A stretch of DNA of 64,000 nucleotides, from NCBI GenBank assembly GCA_963744145.1, contig CAVUSO010000001.1, positions 5,920,001-5,984,000 on the forward strand, given 5' to 3'. Within the stretch, counting starts at the first letter, position 1. Each line of letters begins with the position of its first letter. Below the pieces are notes generated by a model, which worked only from the letters and a program-made list of their open reading frames with translations, was not told where the DNA came from and did not search any database. Shown here piece by piece: positions 11,430 through 36,156 of this stretch. Both the position numbers and the translations under genes were made by a program. This DNA comes from an uncultured cyanobacterium. Lineage in GTDB: Bacteria; Cyanobacteriota; Cyanobacteriia; Cyanobacteriales; CAWUOF01.

Positions 11430-12821
11430 CCATCGAGATCAGAACATCACAAATCTGGTAGAGAAAATAGTTGACAAAAGAGCATAGAGAGTGGTAGGTG
11501 AAAAACTATACCGTCCAACTCATAATCTCCAGGAATATTCAAATGTCTCAAGGGTTCGATATCAATATAGCTAATGCTAAACAAAACTCCCATTCTGCTA
11601 GGAAAAACCAAGTAGTAGCTGACTTGATGGAAATACAACAGAGTTTAGTCAAGCATTTTGAAGATGTTGAAGACCCGAGAGTAAACCGAACAAAAAAACA
11701 CTTATTGATAGACATTTTAGTGATGGCAATTCTGGCCATAATAGCTGGAGCACAAGGCTGGGAAGACATTGAGAATTATGGGATTAGTAAACAAATTTGG
11801 CTAGAAGAGTTTTTAGAATTACCCAATGGTATTCCCTCAGATGATACCTTTCGTCGAGTATTTGAAAGTATTAACCCCAACCAATTGGAGCAATGTTTTC
11901 AAGCTTGGGTAAACACCTTAGTTACTCAAATGGGAGGAGAAGTAATTGCCATAGATGGGAAGACTGTCAGAGGTTCCTATGACCGAAATCAAGGACAATC
12001 AGCATTACATTTGATTAGTGCGTGGGCTAGTGAACAACGATTAGTTTTAGCACAAATGAAAGTCCAAGATAAATCCAATGAAATTACAGCTATTCCAGCA
12101 TTACTAGAGTTACTTGATATCGCTGGCTCAATTATTACTATTGATGCGATGGGGACCCAAACCGAAATTGCTCAAAAGATTATTGATAAAAAAGCTGATT
12201 ATATTCTGACACTTAAAGCCAATCATCCAACTTTACATAATCAGGTACAACAATTCTTCCAAACTGCACAGAAAAATAATTTTTCAGGAATTGATTTCAC
12301 TCATGACAAACGGATTGAGAAAGGGCATCATCGGGTGGAAATTCGTGAAGTTTGGGTGCTCCCTATTACGGCCATTCCTGACCTTTACCAACCCAAATTA
12401 TGGGCAGGTTTAAAAAGTATTGTCATCATTCATCGTATCCGTCATCTTTGGAACAAAACTACTTGCGAGACTCAATACTATCTTACTTCTTTAGACAACA
12501 ATGCTGAATTCATAGGTCGAGCTATTCGTCAACATTGGGAAATCGAAAATTCTGCACACTGGACTTTAGATTGTACTTTTTTTGAAGATAGCTGTCGCAT
12601 TCGTTCTTTTCACAGTCCTCGTAACTTTTCTCTGCTCAGACGATTAGCTCTCAACGCTCTTAATCGCGAGTCAACTTACAAACGCAGTTTACGCCAGAAA
12701 AGTAAACGCGCTGCTATGGATAATAATTATATGCTCCAAATCCTCCTTTCTTGTTTCTCTGAGTCTACATTAGATCCTTCTTAATCCTTGTGTCAAGCCT
12801 AATTGAGATGCTCTTACCCTG
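11365..12821 (+). mobile_element. ISAs1 family insertion sequence
   Basis: Terminal IRs CAGGGTTAGCGCATCTAATT / CAGGGTAAGAGCATCTCAATT; 10-bp target duplication GATACCCAGG at 11355-11364 and 12822-12831. Confidence 0.95.
11543..12784 (+). CDS. ISAs1 family transposase
   Basis: DPR, GIPSDDTF, AIDGKT, KSNEITAIP, TIDAMG, HWEIEN..HWTLD. Confidence 0.95.
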   Translation: MSQGFDINIANAKQNSHSARKNQVVADLMEIQQSLVKHFEDVEDPRVNRTKKHLLIDILVMAILAIIAGAQGWEDIENYGISKQIWLEEFLELPNGIPSDDTFRRVFESINPNQLEQCFQAWVNTLVTQMGGEVIAIDGKTVRGSYDRNQGQSALHLISAWASEQRLVLAQMKVQDKSNEITAIPALLELLDIAGSIITIDAMGTQTEIAQKIIDKKADYILTLKANHPTLHNQVQQFFQTAQKNNFSGIDFTHDKRIEKGHHRVEIREVWVLPITAIPDLYQPKLWAGLKSIVIIHRIRHLWNKTTCETQYYLTSLDNNAEFIGRAIRQHWEIENSAHWTLDCTFFEDSCRIRSFHSPRNFSLLRRLALNALNRESTYKRSLRQKSKRAAMDNNYMLQILLSCFSESTLDPS

Positions 12822-12907: not shown

Positions 12908-13419
12908 TACCTAGCCTCACTGCGTAGAGTTTGCAAAGTTTCTAGGCTACTGGTAGCAGCTATTGGTTGGTTTCTCCTTAGATGAGAGCGGGATTTCAGC
13001 TTTCCCTTAATTTGATCGTTAATGGTTGAACGATCGATTAATTCTTGCCTAATACCAATTAACTATGAAATTGCACTTAATCTGAGGTTGATCTGTTAGG
13101 TCAGGGCAGGTTTATAATGGTGATCTGTTGGTGGCAAAATTGACTGGTGAACCTGCCCCTACCAATTTTATCCTCAATTTGCGGATTTCTGTAGGGGTGG
13201 GTTCACCGAGATGTTTGACATTTACCTACTAATCATCAAAACCCACCCTCACCCACAGATCAATCTTATCAATGTATCTTCATAGTGAATTGGTATAATA
13301 GTGGATAATTTAGCGATCGCCTTTCCTTGACGAGTAATAATCACTTCTTCTCCCCGTTCCACCTGATTGAGAATTTGATTCATCCTAGCCTGAAAATCAG
13401 TAACACTTAATTCTATCAT
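12904..13419 (-). pseudogene. Phd/YefM antitoxin interrupted by a MITE
   Basis: MIELSVTDFQARMNQILNQVERGEEVIITRQGKAIAKL; removing 13053-13295 plus one TAA restores an 89-codon frame ending LRSEARY*. Confidence 0.8.
13053..13295. mobile_element. MITE with TACCAATT termini carrying two REP-like hairpins
   Basis: IRs TACCAATT(A/C)ACTATGAA, TAA on both flanks, internal GAACCTGCCCCTAC and GTAGGGGTGGGTTC. Confidence 0.8.
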
Positions 13420-22530: not shown

Positions 22531-22708
22531 AATTAGATGTCAAAATTAACGAGCATTTTCATCTTATCAGTTAAAATGAGCGCAAAAAATACTTGATCAT
22601 CTGAGCTGATTTTTATTGATAAATCAATCTAGTTAGCTGTTAAAATAAGTACCAATAACACAAACGTAGCTTTAGATGATTTAAAAAAGATATCCCCAAA
22701 AATGATGG

Positions 22709-23695
22709 TAACTGAATGGATTTTAAGATTTAGTTGATCTGTTGGTTGCATAGATGGTAAGGGCAAAGCATTTCGGTCATATTATGCTGCGTTTGTGCCA
22801 TGATTTATGCGCCGAAATGCTTTGCCCCTACAAGGAACTGAACTGGATTGGTATTTAATTAGCGATCGCTTGCCGATCAATCGGGTGTAGGGGCGAAGCA
22901 TTCGGGCGACAATTGAACAATCAAACCAGTAATATTAGATCCGAATGCTTCGCCCTTCTTCTGTGCCGAGTTCCCCAAAAATTCTTAACTGAATGGATTT
23001 TAAGGTCTAGTTGATCTGTTGGTTGCAGAGATGGTAAGGGCAAAGCATTTCGGTCATATTATGCTGCGTTTGTGCCATGATTTATGCGCCGAAATGCTTT
23101 GCCCCTACAAGGAACTGAACTGGATTGGTATTTAATTAGTGATCGCTTGCCGATCAATCGGGTGTAGGGGCGAAGCATTCGGGCGACAATTGAACAATCA
23201 AACCAGTAATATTAGATCCGAATGCTTCGCCCTTCTTCTGTGCCGAGTTCCCCAAAAATTCTTAACTGAATGGATTTTAAGGTCTAGTTGATCTGTTGGT
23301 TGCAGAGATGGTAAGGGCAAAGCATTTCGGTCATATTATGCTGCGTTTGTGCCATGATTTATGCGCCGAAATGCTTTGCCCCTACAAGGAACTGAACTGG
23401 ATTGGTATTTAATTAGCGATCGCTTGCCGATCAATCGGGTGTAGGGGCGAAGCATTCGGGCGATAATTTACCGCTTAAACCAGCAATATTAGATCCGAAT
23501 GCTTCGCCCTTCTTCTGTGCCGAGCTCCCCAAAAATTCTTAACTGAATGTATTGTAATATCTAGTTGATCTGTTGGTTGCATAGATGGTGAGGGCAAAGC
23601 ATTTCGGTAATATTATCCTTCGCTTCAGCAATTATTTATTCGCCGAAATGCTTTGCCCCTACGAGGAACTGAACTGGATTGGTATTTAATCAGCG
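22709..23695. repeat. Tandem array of 277-bp units (3 full plus 1 partial), each with two REP-like hairpins
   Basis: TAACTGAATG recurs at 22709, 22986, 23263 and 23540; hairpins GGGCAAAGCATTTCGG..CCGAAATGCTTTGCCC and GGGCGAAGCATTCGG..CCGAATGCTTCGCCC. Confidence 0.95.
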
Positions 23696-23941
23696 ATAAG
23701 CCTACGGCTCGCTGCCACGATAAGCCTACGGCTCGCTTCCGCGATCGCGCCAGCACATTTTTGTCCCACCACCCTGGCAAAACTTAGATTGAGGGGGGTT
23801 TTCCTAGGGACAATTAGGGTTAAGACATTTAATAAGGTTACTCATAATTTTAAAGACCTGATGTGGTAAGACCAATTAGGTACTTCTATCATATAATCAT
23901 CATATTCAAGGATAGTAAAAGCCGATCGCGTTTCCATACCA

Positions 23942-31475: not shown

Positions 31476-32623
31476 TACCAATTCTTGCAACTTTGACTAC
31501 AGATAGTGTAGAGTATAATTTGAGTAGAGTTGAAGGAAAAATATGGCAGGAGTTTATCACCTAGACATTAAGGAAAGTGAAGCCGAGCTGAAGAAATTGC
31601 TCGCAGTGGAAAAAACTGGTCCAGGAAAAGAACGATTACAAGCATTATATCTACTCAAGATAAACAAAGCTAAAACAGTCACAGAAGTTGCTGAAATCTT
31701 GGGCAGAAATCGAGTTACCGTTCAAGATTGGTTAGCCAAATACCGTCAAGGAGGATTGGCCAAATATCTGGGGAAAAAAGTGGGTACAGGCCGACCGAGA
31801 AAAATTCCTGACTGGGCGGTAAAAAGTTTAGAAAAACGACTAAATGAAGAGGAAGGATTTAATAGTTATGGGGAAATTTGTCAATGGCTATCATCCACCC
31901 TTGGGATAGAAGCTAAATATAAAACCGTTCATCAATTAGTGCATTATAAACTAAAAGCCTCACCAAAAATCGCCAGGCCGAAAAGTACAGAACAGTCAAA
32001 AAAAAAGTTAGATAATTTTAGAAATCACTTGGCAGAGGACCTAGCTATGCTGAGTTGGTTTGCCATAACAGTAATGAGTTTAGGAGATAAAGTCAGATTT
32101 TTATGTCAAGATGAAACGCGGATCGGCATGAAAACGATTAGTGGGAGAAAAATTACCATTCGTGGGGTAAAACCAATTGGTAAAGTGCAGTGGAAATTTC
32201 AAGCGACTTATATTTATGGCGTAGTAGAGCCAAAGACAGGGGAACATTTCTTTTACGAGTTTACTCATCTCAATAGTCAATGCTTTCAGATATTTTTAGA
32301 CTTAGTAGCCGCGCATTTTTCGGATAGTATTTTGATCATTCAGTTAGACAATGGTGGTTTTCATAAAGCTAAAAAGTTGGTAATTCCTAAAAACGTTATT
32401 TTAATGTTTCAACCATCCCATTGTCCTGAATCAAATCCAATCGAACAGGTATGGCAGTATCTCAAAAAGGGATTGAGATGGGAATTACCAAGAAACTTAG
32501 ATGAATTAAGACTTTTAATTAGTAAAGAACTAGAAAAGATGAATTCAAAAGTCATTGCCTCAATTACGGGACGAGCCTATATATTAGAGGCACTATCTGT
32601 AGTCGGTATTTAGAGAATTGGTA
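31476..32623 (+). mobile_element. IS630 family insertion sequence
   Basis: 33-bp imperfect IRs TACCAATTCT...GACTACAGATAGTG, TTA on both flanks. Confidence 0.92.
31543..32613 (+). CDS. IS630 transposase (single intact ORF)
   Basis: N-terminal HTH; QDETR, LDNGGFH, PESNPIEQVW DDE triad. Confidence 0.93.
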   Translation: MAGVYHLDIKESEAELKKLLAVEKTGPGKERLQALYLLKINKAKTVTEVAEILGRNRVTVQDWLAKYRQGGLAKYLGKKVGTGRPRKIPDWAVKSLEKRLNEEEGFNSYGEICQWLSSTLGIEAKYKTVHQLVHYKLKASPKIARPKSTEQSKKKLDNFRNHLAEDLAMLSWFAITVMSLGDKVRFLCQDETRIGMKTISGRKITIRGVKPIGKVQWKFQATYIYGVVEPKTGEHFFYEFTHLNSQCFQIFLDLVAAHFSDSILIIQLDNGGFHKAKKLVIPKNVILMFQPSHCPESNPIEQVWQYLKKGLRWELPRNLDELRLLISKELEKMNSKVIASITGRAYILEALSVVGI

Positions 32624-32870
32624 TTACAGCCTATTCCAGGTTTATGAAGTTCATCAAGGTGATCTGTGGTTTCCTGGCGGGTTCATTAATACCTCGACTA
32701 CGCTCGGCACAAGGGTTATTTGTGTGTGGCAAATTCAACGGTGAACCCGCCCCTTGTATCTTTAAAGGATACAGATAATTGGACTAACCAGATACAGGTA
32801 CATCAAGGATCAGGGAGAAATCTAAAGAAACTAGAAAAGTTTCCGACCTCCGCCCAAGAGAGATGAGAAA

Positions 32871-33057
32871 GTGTGCTGAAGAACATCAGCAAGTGGTGAA
32901 GTTGGCCTGCCCCTTAGACCTCATAAGTCTGTTTTGTAGATAAGCTCCCAGTCGCTGATGACAGACGCACAGAAAGCTCGACAGTATCTAAGGCACTCGT
33001 GGTCACGAGATAGCCTGTATTAACAAGGTTAGTTTAATGTCTGTCAAGTTCTCACAT
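32871..33057 (+). ncRNA. IS110 bridge RNA (target- and donor-binding loops); 5' end uncertain
   Basis: LTG CCTGCCCCT 32906-14, RTG TGTAG 32935-39, LDG ACAGTATCT 32981-89, RDG ACAAG 33023-27, each pair inside a closed stem-loop. Confidence 0.85.
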
Positions 33058-33090
33058 ATGAAAGAGATCAAGAGACATCAGGAGAAACTT

Positions 33091-34077
33091 ATGACATCTA
33101 CAGTCTTAGGAATTGATATTAGTAAAAAAGACTTTTATGTCGTTTTACTCAAACCGGACTGTGGGAAAAAGCCAAAACCCAAAAAATTTACCAACGATCT
33201 CTCAGGGTTTGGAAGTTTAGCACAATGGCTAAAACAACAAGGTGTGGTAGAACTTCATGCTTGCCTAGAAGCGACCAGTATTTATGGGGAAGCATTAGCT
33301 GAATTTCTCTACCAGAGTGGTTATCAGGTAAGTATCGTTAATCCAGCGCGAATCAAAGGATTTGCCAAAAGTGAACTCCTGCGAACAAAAACCGACGCGG
33401 TAGATGCAGGCTTAATTGCCCGTTTTTGTGCGGCGATGAAGCCGTCACTGTGGACACCAACAGCACCGGAAGTTAAGGAATTACAAGCCCTGCTCAGACG
33501 ACTAGAATCCTTCATCGAAATCGCGCAACAGGAACAGAATCGGCTCGAAACCGAGAGTGAACCTGTCGCACAAATAACGAGAAAGCATCTAGAATATCTC
33601 GCCCAACAACAAGCAGAGATCAAACAATTAATTCGCGACCATTTTGACCAACATCCCCATTTAAAACAACAGCGTGAGCTGTTGACTTCAATTCCGGGAA
33701 TTGGCGAACAAACTGCGGCTGTATTGTTAGCTGAAATTGGTCGGATTACGGATTATAAAAATGCCCGCCAATTAGTCGCTCATGCTGGGTTAAACCCGTG
33801 CGAACGGACTTCAGGAACTTCGGTTCATGGCAAAACTCGTTTGTCTTGTACAGGCAATACTCGACTCCGAAAAGCGTTGTATCTGCCTGCGGTAGTAGCG
33901 ATGCGTCATAACCCGTTACTCAAAGCCATGAGTGAGCGATTATTAGGTCGTGGCAAGGTCAAAATGCAGGTAATTGGTGCCCTGATGCGGAAACTCTTAC
34001 ATTTAGCTTTTGGCATTTTAAAATCCCAACAGCCTTTCGATCCCAATTATGCGATCGCTACCCCTTTACCCGTCTAG
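33091..34077 (+). CDS. IS110 DEDD recombinase
   Basis: GIDISK, LEAT, KTDAVDA, SIPGIG, TSGTS serine loop; AGGAG RBS before ATG 33091. Confidence 0.95.
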   Translation: MTSTVLGIDISKKDFYVVLLKPDCGKKPKPKKFTNDLSGFGSLAQWLKQQGVVELHACLEATSIYGEALAEFLYQSGYQVSIVNPARIKGFAKSELLRTKTDAVDAGLIARFCAAMKPSLWTPTAPEVKELQALLRRLESFIEIAQQEQNRLETESEPVAQITRKHLEYLAQQQAEIKQLIRDHFDQHPHLKQQRELLTSIPGIGEQTAAVLLAEIGRITDYKNARQLVAHAGLNPCERTSGTSVHGKTRLSCTGNTRLRKALYLPAVVAMRHNPLLKAMSERLLGRGKVKMQVIGALMRKLLHLAFGILKSQQPFDPNYAIATPLPV

Positions 34078-34823
34078 ACGGGATCTGGCGGGCGAAATCT
34101 TGCCACCAGAACCTGTTCATCCCTCAACCGAGATGAACAGACAAAACTGACGACTGTGCATCGGGAGGATCTCGCTTAAACAACTACGGAACTGGTTGAC
34201 TTCTATTCCCAGTATTGGTGAACAAACGGTGGCTCTATAGTTAGGGTCAACCCGTCGGGTTTCCAGTGCCAAAAATGCTCGCCTTTCTGCCCACAGTCAC
34301 GATGCTTCACCACCCATTACTCCCATTAATGAGTGAGAGATGATGGCTGCGTGGGTCAGGTAAAAATCCAGGAGATTAGTGCTTTAATGGTAAAATTTCT
34401 ACCCATATTTTGGCGATTTTCCCATCCGCTAAACTCTTTGACCCTAATTAGGCAATTTGGCGATCGCCACCCCTTGACAAATCAAGACAGTATCTACAGA
34501 GATTCACCAAAAAATCGATCAGGATTAGAGGATGACAAGATTAACAGGATTCGTAGGGGCTGGTGAATGAATTTATGATCACAATCAACCGGGATTTGTA
34601 GGGGCAGGTTCACCAATCAATTCTGCTCCAAACCGATAACTATCATAAACCTGCCCAACCAACACAGATCACTCACAATCTCGGACAGGCAAGATGCCTG
34701 TCCCACCATTCATGCCAAATCTTACTGTACTTCATCAACAGGTCATCCGCTGTATGTAATCGCAGGTAAGCTCCTCTCGGTGACAGCCTGGAAAAAACTT
34801 TAAATAAAATTTTAGTGAATGGC

Positions 34824-34864
34824 TAATCGGGGAAATTAATATAAATTATGACTTTCCCCGATCT
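34824..34864 (-). terminator. Hairpin after ftsZ
   Basis: ATCGGGGAAA...TTTCCCCGAT. Confidence 0.55.
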
Positions 34865-34872
34865 AAATTAAC

Positions 34873-36156
34873 CTACTTATTAGGACGTTGTCTTTGGAGA
34901 AAATCAGGAATGTCCAACCCTGGTTTTGATTCAGATTTGTGCTGAGGTTCAAAAATTGGTGATGGGTGTGGTGTGACAGGTGCAGTCGTTGACCGTTTAC
35001 CAGTCGGTGTTCTGGTAGAAGTTGTCGCAGGTGGTGGTGGGGGAGCTTCACCAGTAAAACCTGTAGCAATCACTGTAATTCTGATTTCACCTTGCAGTCG
35101 TTCATCAATTACTGCCCCAAAAATAATATTAGCATCGGGATCGACAGCTTCATAAATCGTTTCTGCGGCTGCATTTACTTCGTGCAAAGTTAAATCATTG
35201 CCACCAGTAATATTAAAGACAACTCCTTTTGCTCCTTCAATGGAAGAATCAAGTAAGGGAGAAGAAATCGCTGCGATCGCTGCTTCCCTAGCTCGCGATT
35301 TACCAGAACCTACTCCAATTCCCATCATCGCCGAACCAGCATCAGCCATGATCGCTCGCACATCAGCAAAATCAACATTAACTAAGCCTGGGATGGTAAT
35401 GATATCTGATATACCTTGCACCCCTTGACGGAGAATTTCATCAGCATAGCGAAATGCTTCTTGAACTGGAGTATGTTCGGGAATTACTTGTAGTAATTTA
35501 TCGTTAGGAATCACAATCAGGGTATCTACCCGACTTTGTAAAGCTTCTATTCCTTGTTTGGCTTGAGCAGCGCGGCGTTTTCCTTCAAAAATAAAAGGAC
35601 GAGTAACCACACCGACAGTGAGAGCGCCCACTTCTTTGGCCACTTCCGCGACGATCGGCGCAGCTCCAGTGCCCGTACCGCCCCCCATCCCAGCGGTAAT
35701 AAAAACTAAATCAGCATGATCTAGAGCATTAGCAATCTCATCGCGAGATTCCTCGGCTGCTTTTTGACCAATAGCAGGATTACCTCCTGCCCCCAGACCG
35801 CGAGTTAATTTTTGACCAATTTGGAGACGTTTAGAGGCTGCTGAACCGACTAGCGATTGGGCATCAGTATTGATAGTCCAGAAGTCAACTCCCGAAAGAT
35901 CACCTGCAATCATGCGGTTAACCGCATTGCCCCCACCCCCACCGACGCCAATCACTTTGATTCTGGCTATACTACTCGGCACGATGTCATTACTCCTCGA
36001 TTCTTCGCCCGGTATGCCTGTGATATCACGATTTTGGTTTAAATATAACCCAGAATTGCCAAAAGGATTGGCGGGTTCCACTGCCACTGGAAAATTAGGT
36101 TGTTCTTCAGGATGAGGGCTTTTATGGGTGAGCCCCCAGTTATGATTAAGCGTCAT
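34873..36156 (-). CDS. ftsZ: Cell division protein FtsZ
   Basis: [20 protein letters not shown] tubulin signature, C-terminal DIPDFL. Confidence 0.99.

Follow-up and report, generated by a model that had tools for sequence, protein, structure and literature searches.

An IS110-family element in the intergenic region downstream of ftsZ

We analysed 64,000 nt of DNA from an uncultured cyanobacterium (assembly GCA_963744145.1, contig CAVUSO010000001.1, positions 5,920,001-5,984,000 of the forward strand; hereafter the window, whose own numbering is used throughout), in which inspection of the sequence located an IS110-family insertion sequence (IS) at positions 32753-34495 with a CT core at each edge. 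The element, all parts of which read on the forward strand, lies in the intergenic region between an IS630 gene that ends at 32613 and ftsZ, which ends at 34873, and comprises a left non-coding end (LE, 336 nt, 32755..33090), a recombinase gene (328 aa, 33091..34077) and a composite right end (RE). The host is a filamentous cyanobacterium, and relatives of the element occur in Microcoleus, Tychonema, Kamptonema and Chamaesiphon. The prototype of the bridge-RNA recombinases is IS621 of Escherichia coli (Durrant et al., 2024, PMC11208160; Hiraizumi et al., 2024, PMC11208158), for which RNA-guided recombination is reported in vitro as well as in E. coli (Durrant et al., 2024, PMC11208160). On the evidence given below, the window element is very probably an IS621-like, RNA-guided insertion sequence of the IS110 family that integrated at the CT of an intergenic repetitive extragenic palindromic (REP)-like unit, GGTGAACCYGCCCCTAC.

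Both boundaries can be read directly. On the left, CCCGCCC (32746-32752) stands immediately 5' of the core CT (32753-32754), and this left target half with its core (32746..32754) belongs to a REP-like unit, GGTGAACCCGCCCCT, that starts at 32740; the sequence left of the element reads GGTGAACCCGCCC. The LE begins at 32755 with TGTATC, within TGTATCTT, and contains a -10-like TATCTT (32757-32762). On the right, the core CT (34494-34495) is preceded by ..ACAGTAT and followed by ACAGA, so that the element terminus reads ..CCCCTTGACAAATCAAGACAGTAT-CT and is followed by the right target half ACAGAGATTCACC (34496..34508), which completes the repeat unit together with the left flank. Rejoined, the flanks give GGTGAACCCGCCCCT followed by AC; the dinucleotide CT is present at both junctions, and there is no longer target duplication. 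Across related loci the LE starts with TGTATCTT (31 matches) or TGTATCCT (7 matches). The first bases of the window LE also hold a small perfect palindrome, GTATC-TTTAAAG-GATAC (32756-32772), that is absent from the relatives, which read TGTATCTTAAAAGAG. The joined donor 14-mer was not found in the window with up to two mismatches, as expected for an integrated copy, and a distant blastn search of a plasmid collection with the whole element returned no close copies, the only match, at 64%, being with an IS110 gene carried by two Leptolyngbya boryana plasmids.

The recombinase gene, with AGGAG seven bases upstream of its ATG, encodes a DEDD RuvC-like domain and a serine-containing C-terminal domain. 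The former matches PF01548 (E 3e-24, residues 24-171 of the 346-aa open reading frame) and the latter PF02371, the C-terminal Tnp domain with the conserved serine (E 1.7e-28), while the protein as a whole matches NCBIfam NF033542, 'IS110 family RNA-guided transposase' (E 1.6e-71; 241 bits against a cut-off of 140). Among PDB structures it matches the IS621 transposase (8wt6, E 1.1e-73) and ISCro4 (9t56, E 3.4e-74) over residues 6-319. The catalytic residues reported for IS621 are D11, E60, D102 and D105, with S241 as the active-site serine (Hiraizumi et al., 2024, PMC11208158); the window motifs GID (GIDiSK), EAT (lEATs) and KTDxVDA (KTDaVDA) align with the four acidic positions, and SGTSV aligns with the SGSSV of IS621 at the site of S241 (numbering of the window protein is by hand count). 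An identical 328-aa protein is present in the public protein collection, and its 90% cluster also holds a second full-length protein (93% identity, with the same ..ATPLPV end) and a truncated one of 273 aa.

Bridge RNA, guides and the target repeat

The LE contains a region conserved across the family (about 32868..33052, as delimited by the alignments) that a family profile recovers as a single copy in the window (nhmmer E 1.1e-47). Based on the IS621 bridge-RNA sequence and design template in the supplement of Durrant et al. (2024), from which the guide register was taken, we assigned its parts. The target-binding loop (32884..32960), closed by the basal stem CATCAGC (32884-32890)/GCTGATG (32954-32960), holds the left target guide CCTGCCCCT (32906-32914), an inner stem-loop (32915-32931), the right target guide TTTGTAG (32933-32939) and the handshake AT (32940-32941). 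The donor-binding loop (32960..33045) follows, closed by a basal stem of 32961-32966 with 33039-33044 ((G)ACAGAC 32960-32966, GTCTGT(C) 33039-33045), and holds the left donor guide ACAGTATCT (32981-32989), an inner stem-loop (32991-33017), a right donor guide split by two bases (AT 33019-33020 and ACAAG 33023-33027) and the handshake GT (33028-33029). Every nearly invariant bridge-RNA position of the family is kept in the window.

The donor guides fit the element's own ends without exception: the left donor guide matches the joined ends at nine of nine positions and the discontiguous right donor guide, read against the outer right end and the LE start, at seven of seven. Joining the window ends yields a 14-mer identical to the wild-type IS621 donor listed in the supplementary tables of Durrant et al. 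A donor so close to invariant across the family leaves no room for covariation of the donor guides. Some relatives have altered donor loops (left donor guide ending ..TATAT at loci L005 and L044; right donor guide ACTCT(T/C)GT, not ACAAGGT, at L014, L016, L041 and L044); where their ends were mapped these still read ACAGTAT-CT and CT-TGTATC, and such loops may be disabled bridge RNAs or may pair in an alternative way.

A preliminary description made from the window sequence had already named the IS110 recombinase, the CT cores, the CCCGCCC left flank, the ACAGTAT right end and the two stems (CATCAGC..GCTGATG and GACAGAC..GTCTGTC) with their enclosed guides, all of which we find in place; the IS110 assignment is borne out by the two Pfam domains, NF033542 and the PDB matches to IS621. 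Its proposal of an IS621 bridge-RNA layout also agrees with the order of the parts and the register of the guides relative to the published template, and its suggestion that the donor equals that of IS621 holds for the whole 14-mer. Two of its readings needed extension on that template: alongside an 8/9 left guide it gave the right target guide as TGTAG (32935-32939), which is present but better read as the 7-mer TTTGTAG, and, of the two segments that it matched exactly to the donor, it gave the second as ACAAG, likewise present but better read as AT..ACAAG.

Folding and comparative tests bear on the RNA structure. The two loop regions fold better than shuffled sequences (z -4.0 and -2.0), and an explicit IS621-style model of seven helices, applied to 20 family members, had 83.4% of its cells paired, compared with 27-44% when the partners were slid; 14 pairs were changed on both sides, a count reached by none of 500 shuffles.

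The relation between guide and target was examined across 59 related loci, one genome per species, mostly from Microcoleus, Tychonema, Kamptonema and Chamaesiphon, with 46-89% protein identity (the best relative reaching 89% in its best segment); the window's own genome was not among them. The ends of these relatives mostly read ..CCC-CT-TGTATCTT.. and ..CAAGACAGTAT-CT-AC.., and most of the sites that they occupy read ..AACCCGCCC-CT-AC... For the 35 loci with both a bridge RNA and a left flank, we sought the 9-mer formed by left target and core in the locus's own target loop, and found it with no mismatch at 27, with one at 7 (the window included) and with two at the remaining one. In the cross-group control, 112 of 117 comparisons required three to four mismatches, and among 3500 shuffled loops none matched perfectly and 7 matched with one mismatch. 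The loci fall into four target groups (CCCGCCC, ATTGCCC, ATAGCCC and GGTACA), each with a matching guide: the left flank and target of the window recur at 24 of the 35 loci (window counted), other targets are occupied at 11, and where the target differs the guide differs with it. The preliminary description had named copies at sites unrelated to the repeat as evidence that would speak against it; the 11 loci at other targets do not refute it, the guide having changed with the target there.

The window's own left guide carries one mismatch (U opposite a bottom-strand G), and this and the single right-guide mismatch are both G.U wobbles, so that the occupied site scores 14 Watson-Crick plus 2 G.U pairs of 16 by hand count under the scoring rule used for the scan below. 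A U at the third left-guide position is found only in the window among 42 bridge-RNA rows; 31 have C, and the other 10 (the Chamaesiphon group, L046, L047 and L057) differ in guide. The relative at locus L047, of 48% identity, shares the bridge-RNA layout and has a matching guide/target pair of its own, ATAGCCC-CT; it lies on a 1,286-bp contig titled as a Rhizobiaceae metagenome-assembled genome, and with a contig so short, this non-cyanobacterial bin assignment may be unreliable. An insertion of about 1.5 kb interrupts the recombinase gene of L037 (859-1432 and 3001-3670), and L014 and L016 each have a nearby second copy in the opposite orientation.

The target itself is a repeat. The window holds five units, the occupied one and four further copies, and CCTGCCCCTAC with at most one mismatch occurs three times in the 64 kb against 0.54 expected (three were reached by 2 of 100 shuffles). 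When every CT in the window was scored on the 16 guide positions with G.U allowed, five sites, four of them members of the repeat family, reached at least 15/16, compared with 0.6 in shuffles. Two unoccupied units lie on the reverse strand just downstream of the element (34550..34608): 34595-34608, about 100 bp away, is a perfect 16/16 Watson-Crick match to the guides, and 34550-34563 scores 15/16; this tandem pair (34540-34625) forms no stable hairpin (z 0.3). The other two form an inverted pair (13145..13208, forward strand), with candidate targets scoring 15/16 and 16/16 with wobbles, in an intergenic region between open reading frames ending at 12784 and 13606; here the units 13146-13162 and, inverted, 13188-13207 form an 18-bp hairpin (-36.6 kcal/mol, z -6.4). 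In 304 kb of the relatives' flanks the 11-mer CCCGCCCCTAC is intact 27 times, usually after ..TTGGTGAA, and we therefore conclude that the repeat is real and common to the relatives' genera. The earlier proposal that the element targets a host repeat thus agrees with the relatives' occupation of the same sites and with these 27 further 11-mers.

The surroundings of the repeat showed further features. A 28-nt inverted repeat (71% complementary; 32659-32686/34645-34672) brackets the repeat cluster that holds the IS, and its outer words, GTGATCTGT.. and ..CACAGATCA, also bracket the REP-like hairpin at 13.1-13.26 kb (13090-13260); it may be that the REP-like units form the central part of a larger palindromic element resembling a miniature inverted-repeat transposable element. 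A tandem array at 22693-23697 (3.6 copies, 277-bp period, 95% matches) holds GCCCCTAC in both orientations in each unit, within ..GAATGCTT(C/T)GCCCCTAC; this separate repeat family has the core of the IS target in common, yet the guides match it poorly (12-14 of 16). The IS630-family transposase gene (31543-32613, forward strand; NCBIfam NF033545, E 2e-62; Pfam DDE_3 and helix-turn-helix domains) ends 140 bp upstream of the left core, so that two unrelated insertion sequences stand next to each other in one intergenic repeat cluster, and the cluster lies just past the 3' end of ftsZ (34873-36156, reverse strand; TIGR00065, E 2.4e-137).

Proposed mechanism and the composite right end

Beside the anatomy, the guide and flank matches, the covariation across the family and the conserved catalytic residues, all observed above, we infer transcription, circle formation and current activity of the window element. 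The homology with IS621 suggests that the element leaves as a circle and that the RE-CT-LE junction of this circle serves as donor. This junction would assemble a sigma-70-like promoter from the right-end TTGACA, an 18-nt spacer and the left-end TATCTT. In the transcribed bridge RNA, the target-loop segment CCUGCCCCU, of the same sense as the left target and core, would base-pair with a repeat unit's bottom strand and UUUGUAG with the top strand (CT-ACAAA or CT-ACAGA), and the donor-loop segments ACAGUAUCU and AU..ACAAG would pair with the joined ends ACAGTAT-CT-TGTAT. With one loop on the junction and the other on the repeat unit, the RNA would hold donor and target together while the recombinase exchanges strands at the CT cores, and the element would land in another copy of the repeat with no duplication beyond the core.

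Several observations weigh against this interpretation. At most of the 35 loci the target is the same through common descent, and the covariation therefore rests on about four independent groups. The right target guide was weakly tested: CTAC pairs at 30 of 30 loci but is invariant, and positions 5, 6 and 7 pair at 12, 4 and 9 of 30. De novo RNAalifold recovered a partial architecture (23 pairs) with a weak covariation term (-0.46), which is why the explicit seven-helix structure was tested, and this structure was drawn from the window sequence, so that the slid control favours it. A scan of 32300-34900 against Rfam 15 at E values up to 10 gave four chance-level matches, none of them relevant, and Rfam 15 thus provides no independent bridge-RNA model that recognises the region. 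The preliminary view of an 'abundant' repeat with 'many landing sites' in the host genome is based on the five units of the 64-kb window. The left target guide has its one mismatch to the occupied site, the window holds a single copy of the element (tblastn and an nhmmer profile), and the computed junction promoter (TTGACA 34474-34479, 18 nt, TATCTT 32757-32762) is a match to consensus only; in the integrated element, a promoter and terminator scan found promoter-like sites no more often than in shuffles (3 against 3.2).

Some of these points would also suit a well-preserved fossil whose parts look intact but which has ceased to transpose, as could follow, for instance, from too little bridge RNA being made by the integrated copy or from drift of the guide. 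The single copy, the guide one base off its occupied site and the lack of an above-chance promoter-like site in the integrated left end are all compatible with such a relic, and the copies in the protein cluster, which differ by about 7% with one truncated, point to old rather than recent spread. Set against this are the open reading frame with all five catalytic residues aligned, the retention of the nearly invariant RNA positions, the exact match of both ends to the donor guides and the perfect empty target close by. Nor is the guide mismatch exceptional, since 0-2 mismatches are reported to be usual in natural guide/target pairs; donor mismatches are reported to be poorly tolerated in IS621. 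We regard loss of activity as possible but doubtful.

The preliminary description had called the element intact, which holds for the recombinase reading frame but not for the right end, where a decayed inner end is followed by a pseudogene tail. The inner end (34061..34086) lies at, and overlaps, the stop codon and finishes in CT (34085-34086), with TTGACA changed to TTTACC and ACAGTAT to ACGGGAT; the window protein gains a few residues from this decay and has ..PLPV as its C-terminus. The tail (34087..34469) is a decayed recombinase copy that covers the gene from roughly codon 142 to its 3' end; it contains stops and a frameshift and has lost about 116 nt. It was detected by tblastn at residues 191-232 and 264-322 (E 4e-11), and at the DNA level its homology extends from about 33516 (score 39 against 22 +/- 3.8 in shuffles, reached by none of 300). 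The outer end (34470..34495) has the family consensus CCCCTTGACA..TCAAGACAGTAT-CT, including the -35-like TTGACA (34474-34479), a motif found in 38 of 49 right-end-like ends of the family. In all, 409 bp (34087-34495) lie beyond the inner end, and because of the tail the stop codon is 418 nt from the outer end. A start of the tail at a left-donor-like site in the gene (about 33532-33542) was considered and dropped, since the local alignment places the start of homology at about 33516. Against each family member the tail shows 62-69% identity, and against the window's own gene 65.2%; we likewise rejected its origin as a recent in situ duplication of that gene.

Which of the two ends serves as the working right end can be weighed from these data. 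The mobile unit might be 32755-34086 only, a 1,332-bp element of normal family size ending at the inner CT, with the tail as an inert remnant, no longer moving with it, either of a partial tandem copy or of an element that had occupied the same site before. The alignment of the window with all relatives stops exactly at CT 34085-34086; the relatives' right end, where found, lies at the stop codon (TGA inside CCCCTTGACA) and none has the window's tail; and the 25 relatives with both ends mapped measure 1,238-1,687 bp. The inner end, moreover, still fits GACAGTATCT at 8 of 10 positions, and a tail no closer to its own gene than to others is old or foreign. Among the products of local expansion, partial tandem IS110 modules with boundaries that fit the left donor only are reported to be common (Hu et al., 2026, bioRxiv 10.64898/2026.08.14.744561). 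However, the inner end has lost the conserved TTGACA and carries two mismatches to its own left donor guide, which is unfavourable given the low tolerance of donor mismatches reported for IS621, and the GGCGGG.. that follows its CT does not fit the right target guide. The outer end, in contrast, matches the left donor guide at nine of nine positions, is followed by the right half of the repeat, which fits the guide, and keeps its last 26 nt at consensus while the rest of the tail is at about 65% identity, which suggests selection on the outer end. Finally, the second full-length protein of the cluster shares the ..ATPLPV end, so that the altered inner end probably predates at least one transposition. 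Termination at the inner CT is accordingly an unlikely reading of the locus; the outer end at 34495 is most likely the functional right end, and the 409 bp before it would be the relic of a partial tandem copy of the element.

Taking the outer end as functional, we tentatively propose that the lineage moved its working right end about 410 bp outward by way of a partial tandem copy, perhaps through recombination at a half-match to the left donor only, and that the C-to-U change in the left target guide tracks, or widens the guide to, variants of the host repeat. As parts of the same tentative proposal, right end, -35 box and stop codon, which overlap in normal family members, would have become uncoupled, the proximal end decaying and adding three residues to the protein, and the distal end keeping its consensus as the gene fragment before it degenerated; the guide U would pair A-U with the CCTGCCC variant and G.U with the CCCGCCC variant. 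The expanded IS110 loci of Hu et al. (2026) resemble the window in a partial second module downstream of an intact gene and in an internal boundary like the left donor plus CT; they differ in that the window module is small (409 bp), strongly decayed and without cargo. A second right-end-like string, ..CCAAGACAATAT-CT, at about 1561-1570 of L005, about 130 bp further downstream than this relative's true right end, may be another partial-module relic.

That the guide and flank matches are coincidental, the left end being a 5' untranslated region of a transposase that finds its target by protein alone, is extremely improbable, for although Rfam offers no match and single-sequence folds pair the guide segments with each other, the guide tracks the target in four groups, perfect matches occur at 27 of 35 loci against 0 of 3500 shuffles, and architecture and donor are identical to those of IS621, for which RNA-guided recombination is reported (PMC11208160).

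Comparison with known systems

IS621 is reported to insert into REP sequences, to have a discontiguous right donor guide and to rebuild its promoter across the RE-LE junction (PMC11208160), and a long left end with a short right end is given as characteristic of its IS110 group (PMC11208160, Extended Data Fig. 10 legend). The window element shares with IS621 the two Pfam domains, the aligned catalytic residues, a target loop followed by a donor loop, the CT core, the 14-nt donor, GUAGAU (the end of the right target guide plus handshake), the discontiguous right donor guide and a target in a host palindromic extragenic repeat ending ..CCTAC. The place of the putative junction promoter would also be the same, with TTGCAG/17 nt/TATTAT in IS621, by our own reading of its sequence, and TTGACA/18 nt/TATCTT in the window. 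The two differ in left target (ATCGGGC in IS621, CCYGCCC in the window), in the window's cyanobacterial host, in the length of the left end before the gene (about 190 nt in IS621; 336 nt in the window, with a variable stretch before the target loop) and in the window's composite right end with its 409-bp pseudogene tail. The relatives in Microcoleus and Chamaesiphon have the same donor ends, in most cases the target AACCCGCCC-CT-AC, and a nearly identical bridge RNA, and differ in a right end that, where found, lies at the stop codon with no tail.

Site-specific insertion into REP sequences has long been known for IS110 elements and is not confined to IS621. ISPpu9 and ISPpu10 of Pseudomonas putida are reported to be IS110-family elements inserting site-specifically into host REP sequences; the likeness is in this site-specificity, and the hosts and the repeat sequences differ. 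Other REP-targeting IS110 elements were reportedly described by Tobes and Pareja in 2006 and by Choi and colleagues in 2003, as referenced in the IS621 paper. The published set of natural targets (Supplementary Data 2) already contains the target class of the window (..AACCCGCCCCTACAAAA.., ..GACCTGCCCCTACC..). Since both REP targeting and this target class have been published, the idea is not new; a full-text literature search, for its part, returned no paper devoted to cyanobacterial bridge-RNA elements, the terms occurring only incidentally.

We conclude that the window element is an ordinary, well-preserved member of the IS110/IS621 group; REP targeting, the two-loop RNA, the CT core, the junction promoter and the target class are already published. 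Only its composite right end and the one U of its left target guide would set it apart. Little is gained from it for the mechanism. It provides a clean natural example of a bridge-RNA element, in which the guides can be read against an occupied target and a perfect empty one about 100 bp away. The composite right end may record a separation of overlapping end and gene functions after partial duplication, and, as an idea for application rather than a finding, a native recombinase with many natural landing pads could serve integration in cyanobacteria. Of specialist interest in the comparison with IS621 is the 14-nt donor, which is identical in the E. coli and the cyanobacterial elements.

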